Source of the DNA: Chlorobiota bacterium
Lineage (GTDB): Bacteria; Bacteroidota; Ignavibacteria; Kapaibacteriales; NICIL-2
Assembly: GCA_026416585.1 (NCBI GenBank)
Contig: JAOAEV010000008.1
Location: 1 to 63,526 of the forward strand
DNA: 63,526 nucleotides
Reading direction: 5' to 3'
The translations under genes were made by a program, and so were the position numbers. Positions 44,453 to 53,821 of the stretch are shown here, one piece after another (position 1 is the first letter of the stretch; the number at the start of each line of letters is the position of its first letter). The notes beneath the pieces were generated by a model. The model searched no databases and was not told the DNA's origin. It worked only from the letters and a program-made list of their open reading frames with translations.

Positions 44453-45172
44453 TTACACTCCGCGACGTGTAGGTTCCCAAATGAATTTGTGCAACTGTAG
44501 CTGCAACCGAACCGGCAGCTGGTCAGCAAGTATCCACTCGGCTAACTGATCGGGAGGCAACAGACCAAATGCGGGCGAAAACAGCACTGCAGCAACTCGA
44601 TCCGTAACGCAATGACGCTCGATGAAGTGACAAGCCCACTGGTAATCTCTACGGCTTGCGATGACGAATTTGACTTCATCTTGCCGACGGAGGAGCTCAA
44701 CGTTTTTTTCCCAATTCAGCGGCGACATTCGTGAGTCAGGACACTTGACATCAACAATACAGATCGCGCGATCATCAACATGCTCGATCGAAATATGCCC
44801 GCCGGTTTCGATTGCAACGGTATAGCCATGATCGCACAGCCATTGCACGAGACGAAATGTTCCCAACTGCTCCAGAGGCTCTCCGCCCGTTAACTCGACA
44901 AACTGTGAACCATATGTAGCCACGCGATCAAGTATTTCTGCGGCTGTCAGCGCCAAGTCAGGCGTGCGCCGATCGAGTGCATAAGGGGTGTCGCACCATG
45001 CGCAGCGAAGAGAGCACCCCTGTACCCGCACGAATACACACGGCATACCCGCACGTGTCCCTTCACCCTGAATCGAGTGGAAAATCTCGCTCAGGTATAG
45101 TGTGACTTGGGCTGGGTCGCTGGAGAGCGCAGCAATCGCCTCAGCAGTAGGCTGGAGAAATTTTGCCATCAA
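44453..45172 (-). CDS. queE: 7-carboxy-7-deazaguanine synthase (radical SAM)
   Basis: EIFHSIQGEG, CSLRCAWCDT, TGGEPL, QLHKFIW. Confidence 0.92.
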   Translation of the reverse strand: MMAKFLQPTAEAIAALSSDPAQVTLYLSEIFHSIQGEGTRAGMPCVFVRVQGCSLRCAWCDTPYALDRRTPDLALTAAEILDRVATYGSQFVELTGGEPLEQLGTFRLVQWLCDHGYTVAIETGGHISIEHVDDRAICIVDVKCPDSRMSPLNWEKNVELLRRQDEVKFVIASRRDYQWACHFIERHCVTDRVAAVLFSPAFGLLPPDQLAEWILADQLPVRLQLQLHKFIWEPTRRGV

Positions 45173-45180
45173 CCAACAGC

Positions 45181-47238
45181 TTAGTAAGAAAGCAACTGCT
45201 CAATGGCACCCGCAATGCGTTCGGCTGTCGGGACGACCGCTGCCATCAATGCTTTGTTGTAGGGTATCGGCACATCGGGTGGTGCCAAGCGCATTACTGG
45301 AGCGTCAAGAAGCGAGAATGCTTCTTCGGTGATTGTTGCACTAATCTCCGCTCCGAAGCCACACGTGATGGTGTCTTCATGCACAATCAGGCAACGACCG
45401 GTTTTCGCAACCGATTCGAGCACCATTTCTTTGTCCCATGGACGAATTGTTCGCAAGTCTATGACTTCGATCGAGACGCGGAGCTGACGAACTGCCTCCA
45501 GCGATTGATACACCATGTCGCCCCATGTGACGATCGTCGCAGCAGTGCCCTCAAGCACACGGTATGCCTCCCCGAACGGTACAATGAAGTCATCACCTGG
45601 ATAGGGTGTTCGCGCCGGTGCGGTATCAAGCAAGTTCCGATGTTCAAGAAACACAACCGGATCGTTTGCATACAGCGAGGATCGAAGCAGCCCTGCTGCA
45701 TCACGCGCATTCGAGGGAAAGGCAACGATCCATCCAATCGTATGCGCGAAGATCGCTTCACCGGAGACACTGTGCCAGGGATCGCCTGTACGTTTGCTGT
45801 AACCGACAGGAATGCGCACAATAATCGGGGCAGCAAATTGATTATTTGTCCGCCAGCGAATAGTACCACAGTCGTTGAACTGCTCCATCGCCGGGTCAAG
45901 ATATTTGCGAAACTGAATTTCGGGCACTGGGACAAGCCCAGCCAATGCCATCCCGACCGAGCGCCCGATGATACCTTCTTCCGACAGTGATGTATCGAAA
46001 ACGCGATCGGAACCGAACTGCCGTTGCAGGTCCATCGTTGCACCATGTACCCCACCTTTTATGCCGACGTCTTCACCGAAAACCAACACGCGCCGATTAC
46101 GCTCAAGTTCCGACGCAAGCGTACGACGCACAGCTTCGATGAAATTGACGCGATGCCCTTCCACGCTCGGCTTTAGTGTAAACGTTTGTCGTGGAGGTTC
46201 AACTGCCCACTGACCACCTACCTGCTGGATGGTCGAGCCATCGAAGAACACGTAACGTGTCACTGACGATGGATCCGGTTCTGGCTCAGCTAATGCCGCT
46301 TCGCAAGCGGAACGAACTTCATGTTCGACCGATTCAGCAAGTTCTTTCCACTGCTGAGCCGAGAGACTCCCGGCCCGTTGAAGAAAGTTTCGCAGGCGTG
46401 GAAGTGGATCGCGTTCTTCTTCGTCGGTACGTTCTTCAGCGGTTTTATACGATTGATTGTCTGCGCCAGAATGGCCACACAGACGTGGAACACGCGCACG
46501 AAGCAATACAGGTTTGCCTTTTGTACGTGCTGTTCGAATTGCTTCCTCGACAGTCTCTGCTGCGGCAGCAGGATCAGCACCATCGCAATCGAGAACAACA
46601 AGATTCCGGAACGATCGCAAATTATTGGCAATGTTACCACCAGGCGTTTGCAATTCCGATCGAACCGAGATACCAAACCCATTGTCCTCGATAACCATGA
46701 CCAGCGGCAGTTTTAGTGTCGTGGCAACGGTGAGGGCTGACCAAAACCCGTTCGTAGCAACCGAACCATCACCGCCAAGCGCAACAGCGACAGCTCCTTC
46801 CCACTTTGACTCACCAAGCACCTGCACATAGTAGCGGATCGCTTGGGCCCATCCAGCGGCTGGTGTGTATTGCGCACCGACGTCCCCAGAGGCTGGCAGT
46901 ACGGTCACGTTTCTGCGAGGCACCAAGTTGTGCACCACACCAATATCGCGCCCACCGTTACGACTGCCGCTTCGGGCAAGCGGACCGCTGAAGGCTTCCT
47001 GGTACGTCATCCCAGCGTGTAGCACAAACGGTCGTGAGCGATAGTATACTGTAGCTGCATCGTGGGGATGCACAAGTTGTTCAGCCACAAGTGCCTGAAT
47101 CAACTCATGTCCCTTTGCGGAAAACTGATATGTGACCAGTCCTTTCGGCGCAAGTTCTCGCTCTTCGATCTCGTCAATGCGTCGTGATGCGAGAACAGTT
47201 CTTGCTATCGAGCGCCATGCCTCAGATGATAGTGCCAT
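45181..47238 (-). CDS. Fused E1 alpha/beta 2-oxoacid dehydrogenase (probably branched-chain type)
   Basis: ThDP motif GDGS...EDN, GHSGAD, GEDVG.KGGV, EIQF, IDLRT; single ORF. Confidence 0.88.
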   Translation of the reverse strand: MALSSEAWRSIARTVLASRRIDEIEERELAPKGLVTYQFSAKGHELIQALVAEQLVHPHDAATVYYRSRPFVLHAGMTYQEAFSGPLARSGSRNGGRDIGVVHNLVPRRNVTVLPASGDVGAQYTPAAGWAQAIRYYVQVLGESKWEGAVAVALGGDGSVATNGFWSALTVATTLKLPLVMVIEDNGFGISVRSELQTPGGNIANNLRSFRNLVVLDCDGADPAAAAETVEEAIRTARTKGKPVLLRARVPRLCGHSGADNQSYKTAEERTDEEERDPLPRLRNFLQRAGSLSAQQWKELAESVEHEVRSACEAALAEPEPDPSSVTRYVFFDGSTIQQVGGQWAVEPPRQTFTLKPSVEGHRVNFIEAVRRTLASELERNRRVLVFGEDVGIKGGVHGATMDLQRQFGSDRVFDTSLSEEGIIGRSVGMALAGLVPVPEIQFRKYLDPAMEQFNDCGTIRWRTNNQFAAPIIVRIPVGYSKRTGDPWHSVSGEAIFAHTIGWIVAFPSNARDAAGLLRSSLYANDPVVFLEHRNLLDTAPARTPYPGDDFIVPFGEAYRVLEGTAATIVTWGDMVYQSLEAVRQLRVSIEVIDLRTIRPWDKEMVLESVAKTGRCLIVHEDTITCGFGAEISATITEEAFSLLDAPVMRLAPPDVPIPYNKALMAAVVPTAERIAGAIEQLLSY

Positions 47239-47266
47239 CAGTTGATTGTCAAATCGTTTGCAGGTT

Positions 47267-47274
47267 GCAAATTA
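47267..47274 (-). promoter_or_regulatory. -7 promoter element upstream of the E1 gene
   Basis: TAATTTGC on the minus strand, overlapping the palindrome TTTGCA-GGT-TGCAAA (47257-47271). Confidence 0.45.
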
Positions 47275-47354
47275 CGCCACATCCTCTCTGCGGTCGTGGG
47301 ATTGATTATACGTTTCGTAGTTTCACATCGTCTCAATATTCAAAGGTTTCATCC

Positions 47355-48305
47355 ATGATGAAACATGTTATTGCAGTCTTGCTCAGCGTCAGTGCGGTTG
47401 CTGTTCGTAGCCAATTCCTCGCGCCCTTCACTGCTGCCGAAGGCATGCAATCAGCAACACAGACAGCACAGCAAGCAGGAATAGTATCCGCAGGAATTGA
47501 TGCGATTTATACCACCGGCGACACATCACTGTTAGCACAAGTTGGCGGTAGCCTTGGGGGGGCCTTGTCGCTTTCGTTCAACTTCGACCGTGGGACCAAT
47601 ACCGTGTGGCTGTATTCGGTGCGTGGTAAAACACAGAACAATCGCGACACGGCTATCATATATGCAGTCATCAAACTTGTGGCGTTCTATCAGGCATTTC
47701 CTATGTTCGGTGTGCCGGGATTAGGACAGCTCGAGCAAATGCGGGGTGAAGCAGCGCTTCCAGCAACGTTCATGAACAGTAATCTCATGGTGCGAAAACT
47801 TGCAGAGGACTCAACTTTTCGCGCATTTCGGCAAAATCATCCACGTGCAATCTTGCTCGGTGCGAGTTTAGCTTCGATTCGTCTATCTCCAACGAGTCAG
47901 CCAGCCCCTGTGTGGTCGGTTTTACTCGGCGGAGGCACACTCATAGAACCAACACCCCCGACTCTCAACTGTTTCGTCGAAGCAGGTGATACCAGTGGCA
48001 CAGCACGCTGTTTTGAAGTACCCATCGCGTCGGTCACATCCGGGCAGGAGCAAGACTGGACGCTCTCTCCAACCCCAGCAACAGATGTCGTTAGCGTGCA
48101 TGTGCCATTTGAAGAATTGCTCTATCCAGCAACGATCGAAATCCGTTCGCTTTGTGGAGATCTTGTAATGTCGCATGCGCTGACGACAATCAGTGCATCT
48201 AACGCGATATCCATTCCTGTTTCGTCTCTTCCCAGCGGAATGTATCTGCTGCGCTATCGCAGCAAACGAACTGTCCGTACGCTACCATTGTTTGTTTCAC
48301 GGTAG
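47355..48305 (+). CDS. Secreted protein with T9SS type A C-terminal sorting domain
   Basis: Signal peptide; CTD pattern LSPTPATD...IEIRSLCG...LPSGMYLLR; passenger domain not recognised. Confidence 0.75.
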   Translation: MMKHVIAVLLSVSAVAVRSQFLAPFTAAEGMQSATQTAQQAGIVSAGIDAIYTTGDTSLLAQVGGSLGGALSLSFNFDRGTNTVWLYSVRGKTQNNRDTAIIYAVIKLVAFYQAFPMFGVPGLGQLEQMRGEAALPATFMNSNLMVRKLAEDSTFRAFRQNHPRAILLGASLASIRLSPTSQPAPVWSVLLGGGTLIEPTPPTLNCFVEAGDTSGTARCFEVPIASVTSGQEQDWTLSPTPATDVVSVHVPFEELLYPATIEIRSLCGDLVMSHALTTISASNAISIPVSSLPSGMYLLRYRSKRTVRTLPLFVSR

Positions 48306-48342: not shown

Positions 48343-49773
48343 ATGTATGACATCGTCCGAACAATCGACCCTGAGGTGTATGCGGTGCTCGTTGGTGAGT
48401 ACGAACGTCAGCGTGATAAAATTGAGCTGATCGCATCAGAAAACTTCACATCACCTGCTGTTATGCAAGCGCAAGGGAGCGTGTTGACGAACAAGTATGC
48501 AGAAGGCTATCCAGGACGCCGCTACTATGGCGGTTGCCAGTGGGTTGATGTAGCAGAAACACTCGCAATCGAGCGCGCAAAAAAACTATTTAGTGCCGAG
48601 TATGCTAATGTGCAGCCACACAGTGGGTCGAGCGCGAATATGGCGGTGTACTTCACATACCTCCAACCCGGCGATACAGTTCTCGGCATGGACTTAGCAC
48701 ACGGTGGACACTTGACGCATGGCTCACCGGTAAACTTCTCGGGGCGGATGTACAGATTCGTTGCCTATGGTGTGCATCCTGACACAGGCCGGATTGACTA
48801 CAACCAAGCCGAGCAGCTTGCACTCCAGCATCGTCCGAAGATGATCACCGTCGGGGCATCGGCGTATTCACGTGAGATTGACTTTGCAGCATTCCGACAA
48901 ATTGCCAATCGCGTCGGTGCATTTTTGATGGCCGACATTGCACATCCTGCTGGTCTGATTGCCACAGGGCTGCTGCAATCACCAATACCGTACTGTGATG
49001 TTGTCACCTCGACAACACACAAAACCCTTCGCGGCCCTCGGGGGGGCTTGATTCTGCTCGGTAAAAATGCAGAAAATCCCTTTGGTCAGGTTGCCCCAAA
49101 AAGCGGCCGGCTCAAAAAAATGGGCGAGCTGATTGATTCCTGGGTAATGCCCGGTATTCAGGGTGGACCGCTGATGCACGTCATCGCTGCAAAAGCTGTG
49201 GCGTTTGGTGAGTGTTTGCAAGAGTCGTTTACGGAATATGCTAAACAAGTCGTTCGGAATGCAAAAGCACTTGCTGAAGCTCTTATGGAGCGGGGGTACA
49301 CAATTGTCAGCGGTGGAACAGATAATCATCTCATGCTCGTTGATCTTCGTTCCAAAGGGATCACAGGCAAAGAAGCCGAAGAAGCTCTCGACCGCGCAGG
49401 AATCACATGTAACAAGAACGCAGTGCCGTTCGATACACAGCCACCTCTGGTAACCAGTGGAATTCGATTGGGTACACCAGCAATGACCACACGTGGCATG
49501 AAAGAACCAGAGATGCGTCAAATTGCCGAGTGGGTCGATCGTGCACTCCAAAATCGCTCTAATCCCGATGCACTTGAACATATCCGACTCAGTGTCCAAG
49601 ACTTCTGCCGTGCATATCCACTGTACCCCGATCTTGAGCGGCAACCGGTTGAAGAAACGCTCGACCAGCTAAAAGAGCACGCAAGCCGCACGGCAAAAAG
49701 TGTCGTCGAGAATGTCAGCACAGTCTTGGCAACGGTCAGCGAGCAGCTCAAAAAAGTTTCTCAACGACTGTAG
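48343..49773 (+). CDS. glyA: Serine hydroxymethyltransferase with C-terminal extension
   Basis: [35 protein letters not shown] (PLP Lys), SGIRLGTP; about 45 extra residues after YPLYPDL. Confidence 0.97.
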
Positions 49774-49781
49774 GTACCACC

Positions 49782-50024
49782 ATGGACTATTTTGATGCCT
49801 ACGAGGAAATCTATACCCGAATTGAGCGCTATATGCTCGAGCATGGGACGCTCCCGCATGCGCTGGTTGTATCGCCATCGTTGTATCAGTGGCTCTGCGA
49901 TTGCCGCAAAGAATCAGTCGAACAGCCTCATACCGACGATCTGATGTGGTTCGAGACCCCGCATGGGAAAATACGTCTTGTTATAGACGAACGGCTGGAC
50001 CCCTACGAAATTCTCACCGAATGA
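49782..50024 (+). CDS. 80-aa protein resembling an HK97 A-domain-only (family 4 / DUF1884-like) encapsulin
   Basis: The ORF itself is well supported (8 bp after glyA, fills the gap); family call is by eye from EI..RI....HG..P..LVVSP..Y.WL....I.LVIDE.L. Confidence 0.5.
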   Translation: MDYFDAYEEIYTRIERYMLEHGTLPHALVVSPSLYQWLCDCRKESVEQPHTDDLMWFETPHGKIRLVIDERLDPYEILTE

Positions 50025-50592
50025 TGCGCTTAGCGACTGCAATACCGAGCGGCGCAGAATCAGGAAAAACTGCAGTGTACTCGACGCACTCGTACTGATG
50101 TGGAGGAAGATCTCTACACCAGGCGATAACTGCCGCGGCTTCTTCTGCCCCACCTTCATGCCCACGATATGAAACAATCGTCATCGCACCACCTTCGGCA
50201 AGAACGCTGAGTGCTCTTCCAAGCGACGGGATCGTTGTTTCCAGGCGCGTGCGAATAGACTTATCACCACCAGGTAGATAGCCCAAGTTGTACATAATGG
50301 CGCGGAATTGGCTGACACCTTCTGCCGTAGCGATTCTGTCGATATGCTCATGAGATTCCACATAAAGCCGAATACAATCGCCGACTCCATGTGATTGCGC
50401 ATTGGCGCGTGCACTCGCAACAGCATGCTCCTGAATATCACACCCAATGACACGACCGGTAGGTCCGACACACTGTGCCATCATTACAAGATCATTGCCA
50501 TGCCCGACTGTTGCATCCAATGCACAGTCACCAGGACGTAGCACACCGCTGATGACCCAATGTGACCACTCGACAATAGATGGAAGAATCAT
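50014..50592 (-). CDS. mnmM: SAM-dependent methyltransferase, YtqB/MnmM family
   Basis: DATVGHGND, DIQ, YNLGYLPGGDKSIRT, YRGHEGG..E. Confidence 0.8.
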   Translation of the reverse strand: MILPSIVEWSHWVISGVLRPGDCALDATVGHGNDLVMMAQCVGPTGRVIGCDIQEHAVASARANAQSHGVGDCIRLYVESHEHIDRIATAEGVSQFRAIMYNLGYLPGGDKSIRTRLETTIPSLGRALSVLAEGGAMTIVSYRGHEGGAEEAAAVIAWCRDLPPHQYECVEYTAVFPDSAPLGIAVAKRIIR

Positions 50593-50616
50593 TGCATGCA
50601 ATTAATAGAACACAAA

Positions 50617-50624
50617 CAAAAATA
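50617..50624 (-). promoter_or_regulatory. -7 promoter element upstream of mnmM
   Basis: TATTTTTG on the minus strand. Confidence 0.45.
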
Positions 50625-50635
50625 TTATCGGAAGA

Positions 50636-51700
50636 TCACCGGGTAAATCTTGCTTGGTCAGTAAAACGGGCAACATCCCACTTATCAAGGCAATTGCAGC
50701 CCCTGACGATGCATGTAGTGAGCAGATCCGCAAGTCGCGGAGCCAACAGTAAACCACGCGAACCAAGACCATTGAATACCCACATCCCCTTCTGCACAGG
50801 ATGCTCACCAATAATCGGCCGCAAATCAGCAGTGATCGGACGAACTCCTGCCCAAGCACTACTGACCTGGAACTCGCAGTGTAAGAATGCCGACAGTTGC
50901 CTACAGAGATGTGCCGTGGTGTCTTCGGTCACAACCGGTTCGAGTAATGACCAATCGTAGGTAGAACCAAATGTAAACTGATTGCCTTCGATAATGAGAC
51001 TTTTGCCTGCAACACTGAGCCAGATTGGTTCTGTCGTGATGCGCGTGGGAAATATTCCCCGAATGCGCTGCCCACGGGCAAACATTCGCGGTACCCAGTC
51101 GAACCATCGGTTTGATGCAAGCCACGCACCGTCGCAGAAAACAACATGACGACAGCTGATACCACCAACTTCATACCCGCCACAGAAGGGCACTATATCG
51201 CATTCTCCAATTGTACGCTGCAAGTAAGTCGCGTTCATTGCACTGCGGAGTTGATCTGCGATCGCGTCGAGCACTCTTGCAGCACAGACGCGCGCAGCTC
51301 GGCGTATCTCGACCGTCGCTTGTGGCGGCTGCAGGTATGAAGCGATGCTATCGGGAAGTGTTGCCTCATGTGCTTGATCTGATTCGATAGCGAGCCGGCG
51401 TTTGCGCTGCCAAAATCGTAATTCATCGTCTCGATACAGTAGTCGGTAGCATGCAACTGGTTCGATGGCATCATAGGCGCCGTAAAAATTCCATGCAGCA
51501 CTCCACCATTGCTGCCACTGCTCGATGACCCCAAACCGTAAACCTGCCATGGTCGAGATTGCTCCTGCCCCGCGCGTAACTGCGGTGCGTTGTGGAGACT
51601 CGAACACAGCAATGCTGACGCCTTGCTCAAGCAACCTGCGAGCGAGTGTTGCGCCAGCGATACCGAAACCGATGATCACGACATCAGCCGATCGTGACAT
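50636..51700 (-). CDS. FAD-dependent oxidoreductase (DAO family, MnmC oxidase-domain-like)
   Basis: GFGIAG Rossmann motif, FGSTY, WAGVRP..DLRPIIG, NGLGSRGLL.AP; start moved to ATG 51700. Confidence 0.8.
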   Translation of the reverse strand: MSRSADVVIIGFGIAGATLARRLLEQGVSIAVFESPQRTAVTRGAGAISTMAGLRFGVIEQWQQWWSAAWNFYGAYDAIEPVACYRLLYRDDELRFWQRKRRLAIESDQAHEATLPDSIASYLQPPQATVEIRRAARVCAARVLDAIADQLRSAMNATYLQRTIGECDIVPFCGGYEVGGISCRHVVFCDGAWLASNRWFDWVPRMFARGQRIRGIFPTRITTEPIWLSVAGKSLIIEGNQFTFGSTYDWSLLEPVVTEDTTAHLCRQLSAFLHCEFQVSSAWAGVRPITADLRPIIGEHPVQKGMWVFNGLGSRGLLLAPRLADLLTTCIVRGCNCLDKWDVARFTDQARFTR

Positions 51701-51732
51701 GGAGAGTTGATATTGGTACAACCGCGCTGCAA

Positions 51733-51740
51733 TATATTTG
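51733..51740 (+). promoter_or_regulatory. -7 promoter element 6 nt before ATG 51747 (probable leaderless mRNA)
   Basis: TATATTTG. Confidence 0.55.
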
Positions 51741-51746
51741 CGCACA

Positions 51747-52166
51747 ATGAAGACAGCACATTTACTTGCACTGCTCTGCATCGCGGCGTTAGCTGCACGT
51801 GCAGCCGAGGTTGCGGTCGAGTATCTCAGCGCCCGCAGTGATGGTCGTTCGATCACCGTGGAGTGGAAGGCAGTCACCGAACGCGATGTATTTCGATATG
51901 ACATTGAACGTTCGACAGACAACCGTACGTGGGTATTGATTGCATCGCTCGATCCAAAGGGCAGTGGCACAGTCTATCGGTACGTTGACAGTGAGGTACT
52001 TGGCAAAGGCTCAGGTGATCCCTCTGCCGCGGGGCGTGTGTACTACTACCGTTTGCGTATCGTCGGAACCGATAATTCGGCCACACACACCTCTTCGACC
52101 GCCGTCACACACAACTTGAGCACCGTGCGCCGTACGTGGGGAATGATCAAGGAAATGTTCAAGTAG
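51747..52166 (+). CDS. Small secreted Ig/FN3-like protein ending in a TWGxIKxxF motif
   Basis: Signal peptide; VEWKAVTE...YDIERS...YRYVD...YYYRLRIV; C-terminus RRTWGMIKEMFK. Confidence 0.75.
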   Translation: MKTAHLLALLCIAALAARAAEVAVEYLSARSDGRSITVEWKAVTERDVFRYDIERSTDNRTWVLIASLDPKGSGTVYRYVDSEVLGKGSGDPSAAGRVYYYRLRIVGTDNSATHTSSTAVTHNLSTVRRTWGMIKEMFK

Positions 52167-52177
52167 TCCAGCACAAC

Positions 52178-53821
52178 GTGATTGATCGCTGGCTCCATCT
52201 TGGTATCGCGTGCATGATCCTTTTTGATGCGGTACTCGTGGCTGCTGACGAAATTCCTCATTATTCCTGTCTCGATCGGGTCCGAAGTAAAGCCCTACAC
52301 GTGCAAAGTCGCATTCGTCCACGCATGCAATTTTCGGTGCCATCTCCTTCGGGCAAGTTCCTTGTCCACTACGACACACTTGGCATCAATGCTGTAGCAA
52401 GTGGCGACCGCGATGGCAATGGGATTCCTGATTACGTAGACTCTGCAGCCTACTTCATGGATTCCGCCTATCGGTTTGCAATTGACACGCTCGGCTACCG
52501 CGAGCCACCGCGAGACTACGTGGACACTTCGTCGTGGGATGTCTATCTTGTTCAATTGGGGCGTGTACCAGGTTTCTTTTTCGATGACCGGGATCTCGGT
52601 CAGTTCGGTTGGTACGGTGCAACATTTGCCGAAGATTTAATTCCTCTTCCGTGCGGAGGATATGCCTCGACAGGCTTTATTTTTCTCGACAACGACTACA
52701 GCAGTCGCGATTCAATAGGAGCCACAACCAAACGGCGCACGTATCTCGACACTGGCACTGTTGCGTTGGCAATCACGTGCTATCATGAGTTTCATCACTT
52801 GGTGCAGTACGGCTACTTTTATGGAGAAAGTCCCACATTCTACGAGATGACGAGTGTATGGATTGAGCAGCGTGCTTTCCCAGAGATTCACAACTACGTG
52901 CAATATATCCGTCGCCTCTTTAGCAATCCGACACTTTACTGTCTCTCATGCGATCGGAGTATCGAAGGAAGCTATGGTTATTCAATCGCGATACGATTCC
53001 TGGCACTCCAGCTCGGCGATGATATTGTTCGCTCATGGTGGGATGGCATTGGTCGCTGCACCGCTGCACCGATTTCGCTCGACAGCGTCGTATCAGCACG
53101 CGGCAGACGATTTGAGGATCTCTGGTGTCAACTGCTGCCATGGCTATACTGGACGGGCTCGCGTGCAAAACATGGCTACTACAGCGACGCTGCAATCTTG
53201 CCAGAGCTGCAAACAGACAATAGCAGTGATGATTGGCAGTACACTGATCCCTCATGGATACGGACGATTTCGCTCTACCCGCTGCAATTCAAACTTCTCC
53301 GCGCAGTGCTACCAGCCGATCAGGCACGCTTGACACCAGATACTGTTGACTTCGTCGTCACCAACCCATCAGCTCGACAGCTTGCTACCGATCCTCGCAC
53401 AAGTATCGACTACACAGTGGGCATTGCTCGAACACCCCCTGGCGACCGCTTGGGCAATTCACACTACTATTGCACACGCCGAACCGAAACAAATTGCGAT
53501 ATACTCACGTTCCGTGGTGGATTGGAGACAACCACCCAACAAATCCCGACACCCAACCCTATCATTCGTTCCCGCAACCGAGAACTCACTCTTCCTGTTC
53601 CTTCATCGGCGCGCGCTGGCAGTAGCGTTACCATTCAGTTCCTCACAACCGAGGGGATTGAAGTCTATCGTACCACCGCAACAGTCGATGTACGCATCAA
53701 TAACCGCCGCAGCGTGACGATTTTAACGGATGACGGACAATTTCCGCGTCAGGGCGTGTTTATCGCTATCGTGCGCGCTGGCGATGACCACCTTGTGACG
53801 AAAATTGCTGTGCTGCCATGA
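52178..53821 (+). CDS. Secreted HExxH metalloprotease (MXAN_6640-like) with degenerate T9SS-type CTD
   Basis: SPSGKFLVHY, DRDGNGIPDYVD, LDNDY, HEFHH, downstream Glu in FYEMTS; C-terminal PTPNP...GVFI...KIAVL; GTG start assumed. Confidence 0.75.
   Translation: MIDRWLHLGIACMILFDAVLVAADEIPHYSCLDRVRSKALHVQSRIRPRMQFSVPSPSGKFLVHYDTLGINAVASGDRDGNGIPDYVDSAAYFMDSAYRFAIDTLGYREPPRDYVDTSSWDVYLVQLGRVPGFFFDDRDLGQFGWYGATFAEDLIPLPCGGYASTGFIFLDNDYSSRDSIGATTKRRTYLDTGTVALAITCYHEFHHLVQYGYFYGESPTFYEMTSVWIEQRAFPEIHNYVQYIRRLFSNPTLYCLSCDRSIEGSYGYSIAIRFLALQLGDDIVRSWWDGIGRCTAAPISLDSVVSARGRRFEDLWCQLLPWLYWTGSRAKHGYYSDAAILPELQTDNSSDDWQYTDPSWIRTISLYPLQFKLLRAVLPADQARLTPDTVDFVVTNPSARQLATDPRTSIDYTVGIARTPPGDRLGNSHYYCTRRTETNCDILTFRGGLETTTQQIPTPNPIIRSRNRELTLPVPSSARAGSSVTIQFLTTEGIEVYRTTATVDVRINNRRSVTILTDDGQFPRQGVFIAIVRAGDDHLVTKIAVLP

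Follow-up and report, generated by a model that had tools for sequence, protein, structure and literature searches.

Does a small gene that follows directly on the serine hydroxymethyltransferase (SHMT) gene glyA in a Kapabacteria-type bacterium encode a dedicated partner of that enzyme, or a protein with a role of its own? The question arises from a 63,526 nt stretch of contig JAOAEV010000008.1 (assembly GCA_026416585.1; hereafter the window), part of a 2.06 Mb genome that is 97.6% complete. Several of its closest relatives among the metagenome-assembled genomes of Kapabacteria/Chlorobiota, as well as the metagenome run containing the stretch, are labelled as coming from hot springs. An earlier reading made without database searches (the sequence-only reading) had proposed that the SHMT carries an extra amphipathic tail acting as docking peptide for an encapsulin reduced to its axial (A) domain and encoded by the small gene, the two proteins forming an enzyme/mini-shell pair. 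The explanation that we favour, and hold to be reasonably probable, is that the product of the small gene is a capsid-domain protein that stands alone and has a role of its own, its gene having come to lie beside a tailed glyA in a single thermophilic genus with streamlined genomes; we consider the docking-peptide, mini-shell reading a minority possibility.

The enzyme of the window is a full-length canonical SHMT, in which it resembles other bacterial members (GlyA, PRK00011): Pfam PF00464 covers residues 7–398 (E 1.9e-170, 567 bits) and NCBIfam NF000586 (PRK00011) residues 9–428 of 476 (638.5 bits). It differs from them by its C-terminal amphipathic tail, which extends 48 residues past the end of the PRK00011 family model, close to the roughly 45 aa of the sequence-only reading. 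Tails of 39–59 residues were present in 59 of the 108 genomes of the order in which SHMT C-termini were read. Across 55 aligned relatives the tail is homologous, with a variable linker followed by about 35 columns that lead into a conserved end, the last 15 residues or so being the best conserved part. Mean hydrophobicity over these 35 columns peaks at a period of 3.6–3.67 residues (power 98–105, versus 58 at 3.5 and 3 at 4.0), which bears out the amphipathic character noticed earlier and suggests that the conserved part of the tail is one long amphipathic α-helix.

The tail resembles little else. Against Pfam it showed only a faint Apolipoprotein likeness (E 0.031), and a search of a set of 5.8 billion proteins returned 12 candidates, none at E ≤ 0.01; no paper describing it was found in the literature searched. 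When a hidden Markov model of the tail was run against all 22074 six-frame open reading frames (ORFs) of the genome, SHMT alone was recovered (2.3e-10, with the next best at 4.1), and a targeting peptide common to several proteins was rejected on this result. A frameshifted or split tail in the tail-less glyA genes was likewise rejected, since no tail-coding remnant was detected behind 26 such genes (best E 2.8), from which it follows that the short SHMT forms are real.

The glyA stop codon TAG is followed by 8 nt and then by the ATG of the small gene, as the sequence-only reading had it. The 80-aa product is acidic, with a pI of 4.6 (also the family median) and 17 Asp and Glu residues versus 7 Lys and Arg, and it falls in no curated family of Pfam or NCBIfam, the only matches at E ≤ 1 being PMBR (0.14) and the helicase-associated domain HA (PF03457; 0.19). 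The small ORF was found in 32 of 41 relatives and, across the order, in 91 of 201 genomes, always as a single copy with an intact frame, at 35–83% identity and with invariant motifs. Both the small ORF and the SHMT tail are conserved and are not chance ORFs, and most families of the Kapabacteria-type order have the small gene fixed in the chromosome as a single copy. Among 401 genomes sampled from the phylum the family occurs in 17, 16 of them within the order, and the set of 5.8 billion proteins yielded 13 clusters. When 1.84 billion representatives were searched with a profile, 128 matched; about 55 of these are proteins of 73–114 aa aligned over their full length, the rest being long HA-repeat proteins that cover profile positions 5–55 only.

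The fold of the small protein was predicted with AlphaFold2 on a 55-sequence alignment (mean predicted local distance difference test score 84.1; predicted template modelling score 0.68), the model comprising two helices (H) and four strands (E), in the order H6–21, E27–30, H32–45, E56–59, E62–68 and E77–79. Comparison of this model with 48161 PDB representatives using VIA-align, a method independent of Foldseek, gave 50 rows, of which 49 were HK97-fold chains, capsid proteins and encapsulins of Families 1 and 2 among them; the exception, 2lc0, stood at rank 37. In contrast to those capsid proteins and encapsulins, the small protein has no P-domain, E-loop or N-arm, and all 80 of its residues align to A-domain ranges; the P-domain and E-loop that characterise HK97-fold shell proteins, Family 1 encapsulins (PF04454) included, are absent. 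An HK97 A-domain-only fold is likely, and on this point the sequence-only reading had named the module correctly.

Predicted structures of viral proteins (BFVD) point in the same direction. Uncharacterised phage proteins of 70–111 aa occupy the first rows (E 0.0036–0.05, probability up to 1.00, TM 0.5–0.7), followed by full-length major capsid proteins, and they fit the neighbours found with a protein language model, which are clusters of about 80 aa with Uroviricota as the commonest taxon. That the look-alikes are mostly small phage proteins is what might be expected were the small ORF a decaying phage remnant or a functionless chance ORF. This we consider extremely unlikely: although the gene shares its size and predicted fold with the tailed-phage proteins (such as those of the Bacillus phages CP-51 and JL), it differs from them in being chromosomal, single-copy and vertically conserved, with no phage genes beside it at the loci examined. 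Intact copies with invariant motifs in 91 of the 201 genomes searched speak against decay, and a chance ORF was rejected on the same conservation. Nor is there a match to phages at the sequence level, a search of 50,697 phage records having given none for family member P0123 and nothing above noise (E ≥ 0.9) for P0055 or the protein of the window; the small-family profile likewise found nothing in five phage genomes. As an observation in its own right, the many 70–111-aa tailed-phage proteins with the same predicted fold, those of CP-51 and JL included, raise the possibility that stand-alone A-domain-like proteins are a widespread phage class.

Sequence comparisons give hints that converge on this same segment of capsid proteins. 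The Pfam model SU10_MCP matches 5 of 23 distant family members (best 3.6e-5, profile positions 170–243 of 292), PHROG ‘major head protein’ families match 2 of 55 members, and ENCP4 (PF08967) matches 1 of 55 relatives at E 0.062. With hhalign, the small family scored 21.2 against an SU10-type capsid profile (P 0.017, SU10 residues 218–290) and 20.6 against an HK97-type profile (P 0.027, gp5 residues 266–329), scores that were reached by 1 of 150 column shuffles each and that fell to 11.3 and 14.6 respectively with a reversed alignment. Positive controls among true capsid families scored no better (SU10 against HK97, 19.7; HK97 against encapsulin, 23.9), and for gp5 and SU10 (7z45_A residues 208–297) the structure alignment and hhalign gave concordant ranges. 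The top PDB sequence match of the Kapabacteria profile was the A-domain of a Family 1 encapsulin, 6nj8 with three variants of it (E 0.23, encapsulin residues 160–210). Against a profile of 42 Bacillaceae encapsulins, which were picked by the motif of that match, hhalign gave a probability of 77% and a score of 36.4 over 71 columns, reached by none of 150 shuffles; once the 14-residue motif was removed the score dropped to 15.6, reached by 23 of 150 shuffles and hence no better than chance arrangement of columns. A PDB sequence search with the wide alignment returned no capsid match, a single SU10 capsid protein showed no similarity to the small family, and PADLOC gave only scattered weak matches (best 0.0038) with no family matched twice.

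A different assignment is suggested by the HA matches, on which the small protein would be a helical module like the helicase-associated domain and not a relative of capsid domains. The Pfam HA model matches 19 of 29 Kapabacteria members (best 6.2e-5), all 19 below its cut-off, the long matches of the library search are filled by HA-repeat proteins, and the Kapabacteria alignment, compared with HA repeats by hhalign, gave a probability of 96.5% (score 49, residues 8–43), a biased figure, as the repeats had themselves been collected by searching with the small family. However, the match is limited to the N-terminal half, the window protein itself scores just 12.5 bits (E 0.19) against a cut-off of 28.4, and none of the 23 distant members matches HA at all. 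The model, moreover, has four strands and two helices where HA has three helices, its structural neighbours are capsid A-domains, and a pI of 4.6 is ill suited to nucleic-acid binding. We regard the HA assignment as very unlikely, the predicted structure being that of an α/β domain of two helices and four strands rather than a three-helix HA domain. Separately, residues 8–44 (window 49803–49913; helix, strand, helix) score against the Pfam models HA, PMBR and HNH_repeat in 19, 7 and 4 of 29 members respectively; short helix-Gly-Pro-helix repeats may mimic the capsid A-domain motif, or vice versa, and constitute an annotation trap.

How does the small protein relate to the encapsulins that consist of an A-domain alone? 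These Family 4 encapsulins were defined through PF08967, a family of about 100 aa, in a survey of 2021 (PMC8346489), and are so treated in a review of 2024 (PMC11664910). According to the main text of the survey, archaeal Family 4 genes lie in operons with an enzyme gene upstream, of four partner types (hydrogenase, OsmC, GAPDH and DeoC), and a GAPDH/A-domain complex has been reported by proteomics, whilst the bacterial members (4C; Rhodothermus and Rubricoccus) are orphans without an operon partner (PMC8346489). The sole structure is a dimer and no function has been demonstrated, as the main text of the review has it (PMC11664910). Like the Family 4 proteins (PF08967/ENCP4; 2PK8, that is, PF0899 of Pyrococcus furiosus), the small protein consists, by its predicted fold, of an A-domain only and lies in the size range of about 80–100 aa. 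It differs from them in giving no match to the PF08967 model at E ≤ 1 (cut-off 31.4 bits), in its host, a Kapabacteria-type bacterium rather than one of the Thermococci, Rhodothermus or Rubricoccus, and in its enzyme neighbour, since SHMT lies outside the four partner types given in the survey's main text (PMC8346489). PF08967 was absent at E ≤ 1 from the whole genome and above cut-off from all 401 genomes sampled from the phylum, and PF04454 was found neither in the genome nor in those 401. The protein is a Family 4 encapsulin by architecture and not by the defining Pfam model, and belongs to a separate sequence family; of the earlier assignment to Family 4 (DUF1884/PF0899-like), the A-domain-only architecture stood up to structure comparison and the sequence relationship did not. 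As had been supposed, no paper joining an encapsulin with serine hydroxymethyltransferase turned up in the literature searched.

Gene order bears directly on whether the two genes form a pair. In the window genus, glyA and the small gene are separated by 5–13 nt in all eight genomes and, going by the sequence, are probably co-transcribed; a simple scan of the window found no terminator-like site between them. Outside this genus they are adjacent in none of the 73 genomes in which both genes could be placed, the closest pairs being about 5, 7 and 10 kb apart and most lying on different contigs. Thus, unlike in the Family 4 operons, the enzyme linkage is confined to one genus, and glyA upstream of the small gene was seen only there. 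Within two genes of the small gene at 16 loci of other genera we found rpsA (6 loci), a convergent mnmM (5), tsaB directly downstream (4) and homogentisate dioxygenase (3), and glyA at none. What is conserved in the window family is the small gene followed by a convergent mnmM and a gene for a DAO-family oxidoreductase, an arrangement that recurs at four loci of a sister genus (L009, L010, L021 and L022); in the window, mnmM overlaps the last 11 nt of the small gene. These two genes are context and stand outside the glyA/small-gene pair.

Two families of the order have tsaB, a gene for tRNA t6A modification, immediately behind the small gene; the gap is 14–17 nt at L019 and L023 and 116 nt at L015, and at L017 the two genes overlap. 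Judged from this layout, the small gene is there likely to be co-transcribed with tsaB instead of glyA. In the distant subfamily, a gene for a SpoIIE-type PP2C phosphatase lies near the small gene at both loci looked at, two being too few to interpret: at L200 (1492–1758) a response-regulator gene stands between the two, and at L121 (3483–3743) the phosphatase, here fused to a PAS domain, is encoded convergently and directly beside the small gene.

Co-occurrence of the SHMT tail and the small gene was scored in the same 108 genomes, a non-random sample for which lineages that vary were chosen. Both features were present in 56 genomes, the small gene only in 25, the tail only in three and neither in 24, a count to which many genomes of family f3 and genus g19, left out with glyA frames shorter than 455 aa, would add. 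The small-gene-only genomes span at least seven lineages (two tail-less types in genus g5, g41, g46, one g15 genome, family f9, g13 and g28) and their small proteins keep every conserved motif, the protein being equally conserved with or without a tail. Because it is kept in 25 tail-less genomes, the small protein does not need the tail. The tail-only genomes comprise two of g17 (96–99% complete), in which nothing credible for the small gene appeared even at E 10, and one of g11 (91% complete). On a tree of the SHMT core the tail changes state five times and the small gene four times; three contrasts run in the same direction and none in the opposite one, and the sign test is non-significant, with too few pairs to reach significance.

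The strongest alternative to an independent role is a true enzyme/A-domain pair, in which the SHMT tail docks on the A-domain protein or its oligomer, which stabilises or organises SHMT and has other clients too; such further clients would explain why the small protein persists where the tail has been lost. Several observations count for this alternative and against our own explanation. Of the 59 genomes with a tail, 56 also have the small gene; both features are missing from three to four separate lineages on the SHMT-core tree, without any opposing contrast, and this joint presence and absence hints at a link. The order of glyA and then the small gene, at the same short spacing throughout the hot-spring genus, mirrors that of the archaeal Family 4 operons, where the A-domain gene follows directly on the enzyme gene and, for GAPDH, a complex has been reported (PMC8346489, main text). 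The A-domain-only fold of the small protein is itself in keeping with a pair, as is a tail found on no other protein of the genome and best conserved at its very end, and the function that we assign to the small protein is itself inferred. Set against a pair are the lack of adjacency in all 73 genomes outside the genus, the 25 genomes in at least seven lineages with the small gene only, the three with the tail only (two of them nearly complete), the non-significant sign test on independent contrasts and the equal conservation of the small protein with and without a tail. We judge a true pair to be unlikely, and as a conserved system the enzyme/mini-shell proposal is unsupported; its expectation that tail and small gene occur together was borne out in nearly all tailed genomes and failed in the small-gene-only and tail-only ones. 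The tail is rarely found without the small protein, which may leave a functional link possible, without establishing it.

A more specific form of the pair, in which the tail, by its amphipathic end of 35 residues, docks as a helix on an A-domain oligomer and the A-domain protein is a general scaffold of phage origin with other clients in the tail-less lineages, seems to us more doubtful still. Were it true, bacteria would have their first enzyme/A-domain-encapsulin pair, and a targeting peptide would be identifiable for the first time in any Family 4-like system.

According to the explanation that we favour, a stand-alone protein whose gene was brought beside glyA, the small gene would encode a free-standing, strongly acidic protein with the A-domain fold of an HK97-type capsid protein and nothing else, presumably serving as a small protein-binding or self-associating module in a role independent of SHMT. 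Its position 5–13 nt behind glyA would reflect a gene-order change in one thermophilic genus with small genomes. The SHMT tail would be a feature apart, an amphipathic helix specific to the order and repeatedly lost, whose most likely role would be to mediate association of SHMT with itself or with another partner.

A-domain-only proteins (Family 4) are the least understood class of encapsulins, with one crystal structure and no demonstrated function, and are known almost only from hyperthermophilic archaea. The family described here is a second one, unrelated in sequence, with the same truncated predicted fold. It is chromosomal and vertically conserved in a bacterial order, where 91 of 201 sampled genomes have it, and small phage proteins resemble it in fold. 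This suggests that a census based on Pfam underestimates both how common stand-alone A-domains are and how often they were taken over from phages. Its juxtaposition with a tailed SHMT in a single genus offers a cheap test case for the cargo question: should the tail bind the small protein, this would be the first defined client-recognition mechanism for Family 4-like proteins, and should it not, the locus would be a warning against taking enzyme adjacency alone as a cargo relationship.

Table 1. Features of the glyA/small-gene locus, in window coordinates.
Feature	Position	Strand	Basis
glyA, 476 aa	48343..49773	+	ORF list
glyA core, serine hydroxymethyltransferase residues 1–428	48343..49626	+	Pfam PF00464, NCBIfam NF000586
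SHMT C-terminal tail, 48 aa plus stop codon: short linker, then predicted amphipathic helix of about 35 residues with conserved end	49627..49773	+	Beyond both family models
Spacer between glyA and small gene, 8 nt (gtaccacc)	49774..49781	+	Sequence read-out: glyA TAG, spacer, ATG
Small gene, 80-aa acidic protein, predicted HK97 A-domain-only fold, new sequence family	49782..50024	+	AlphaFold2 model, fold matches, conservation
mnmM (tRNA 5-aminomethyl-2-thiouridylate methyltransferase)	50014..50601	-	NCBIfam NF053511, 176.6 bits versus cut-off 135
FAD-dependent oxidoreductase, DAO family, upstream of mnmM	50636..51970	-	Pfam PF01266, E 4.5e-28

Further genes of the window deserve brief mention. 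The gene just upstream of glyA (47184–48305, + strand) encodes a protein of 373 aa, of which only a type IX secretion sorting domain at the C-terminus (Por_Secre_tail, E 1.7e-6) matches a family. Beyond it, at 44453–47238 (− strand), a 685-aa protein is a fusion of the α and β parts of E1 of a 2-oxoacid dehydrogenase (domains E1_dh and transketolase), and is adjoined by a small radical-SAM protein of 239 aa. On the other side, two ORFs of 142 aa and 561 aa that overlap by about 30 nt (51738–53821, + strand) had no Pfam match at E 1e-4. The DAO oxidoreductase gene and mnmM (50014–51970, − strand) form a two-gene unit that looks like a split replacement for MnmC; SHMT yields glycine and methylene-tetrahydrofolate, which are the substrates of the preceding MnmEG step.
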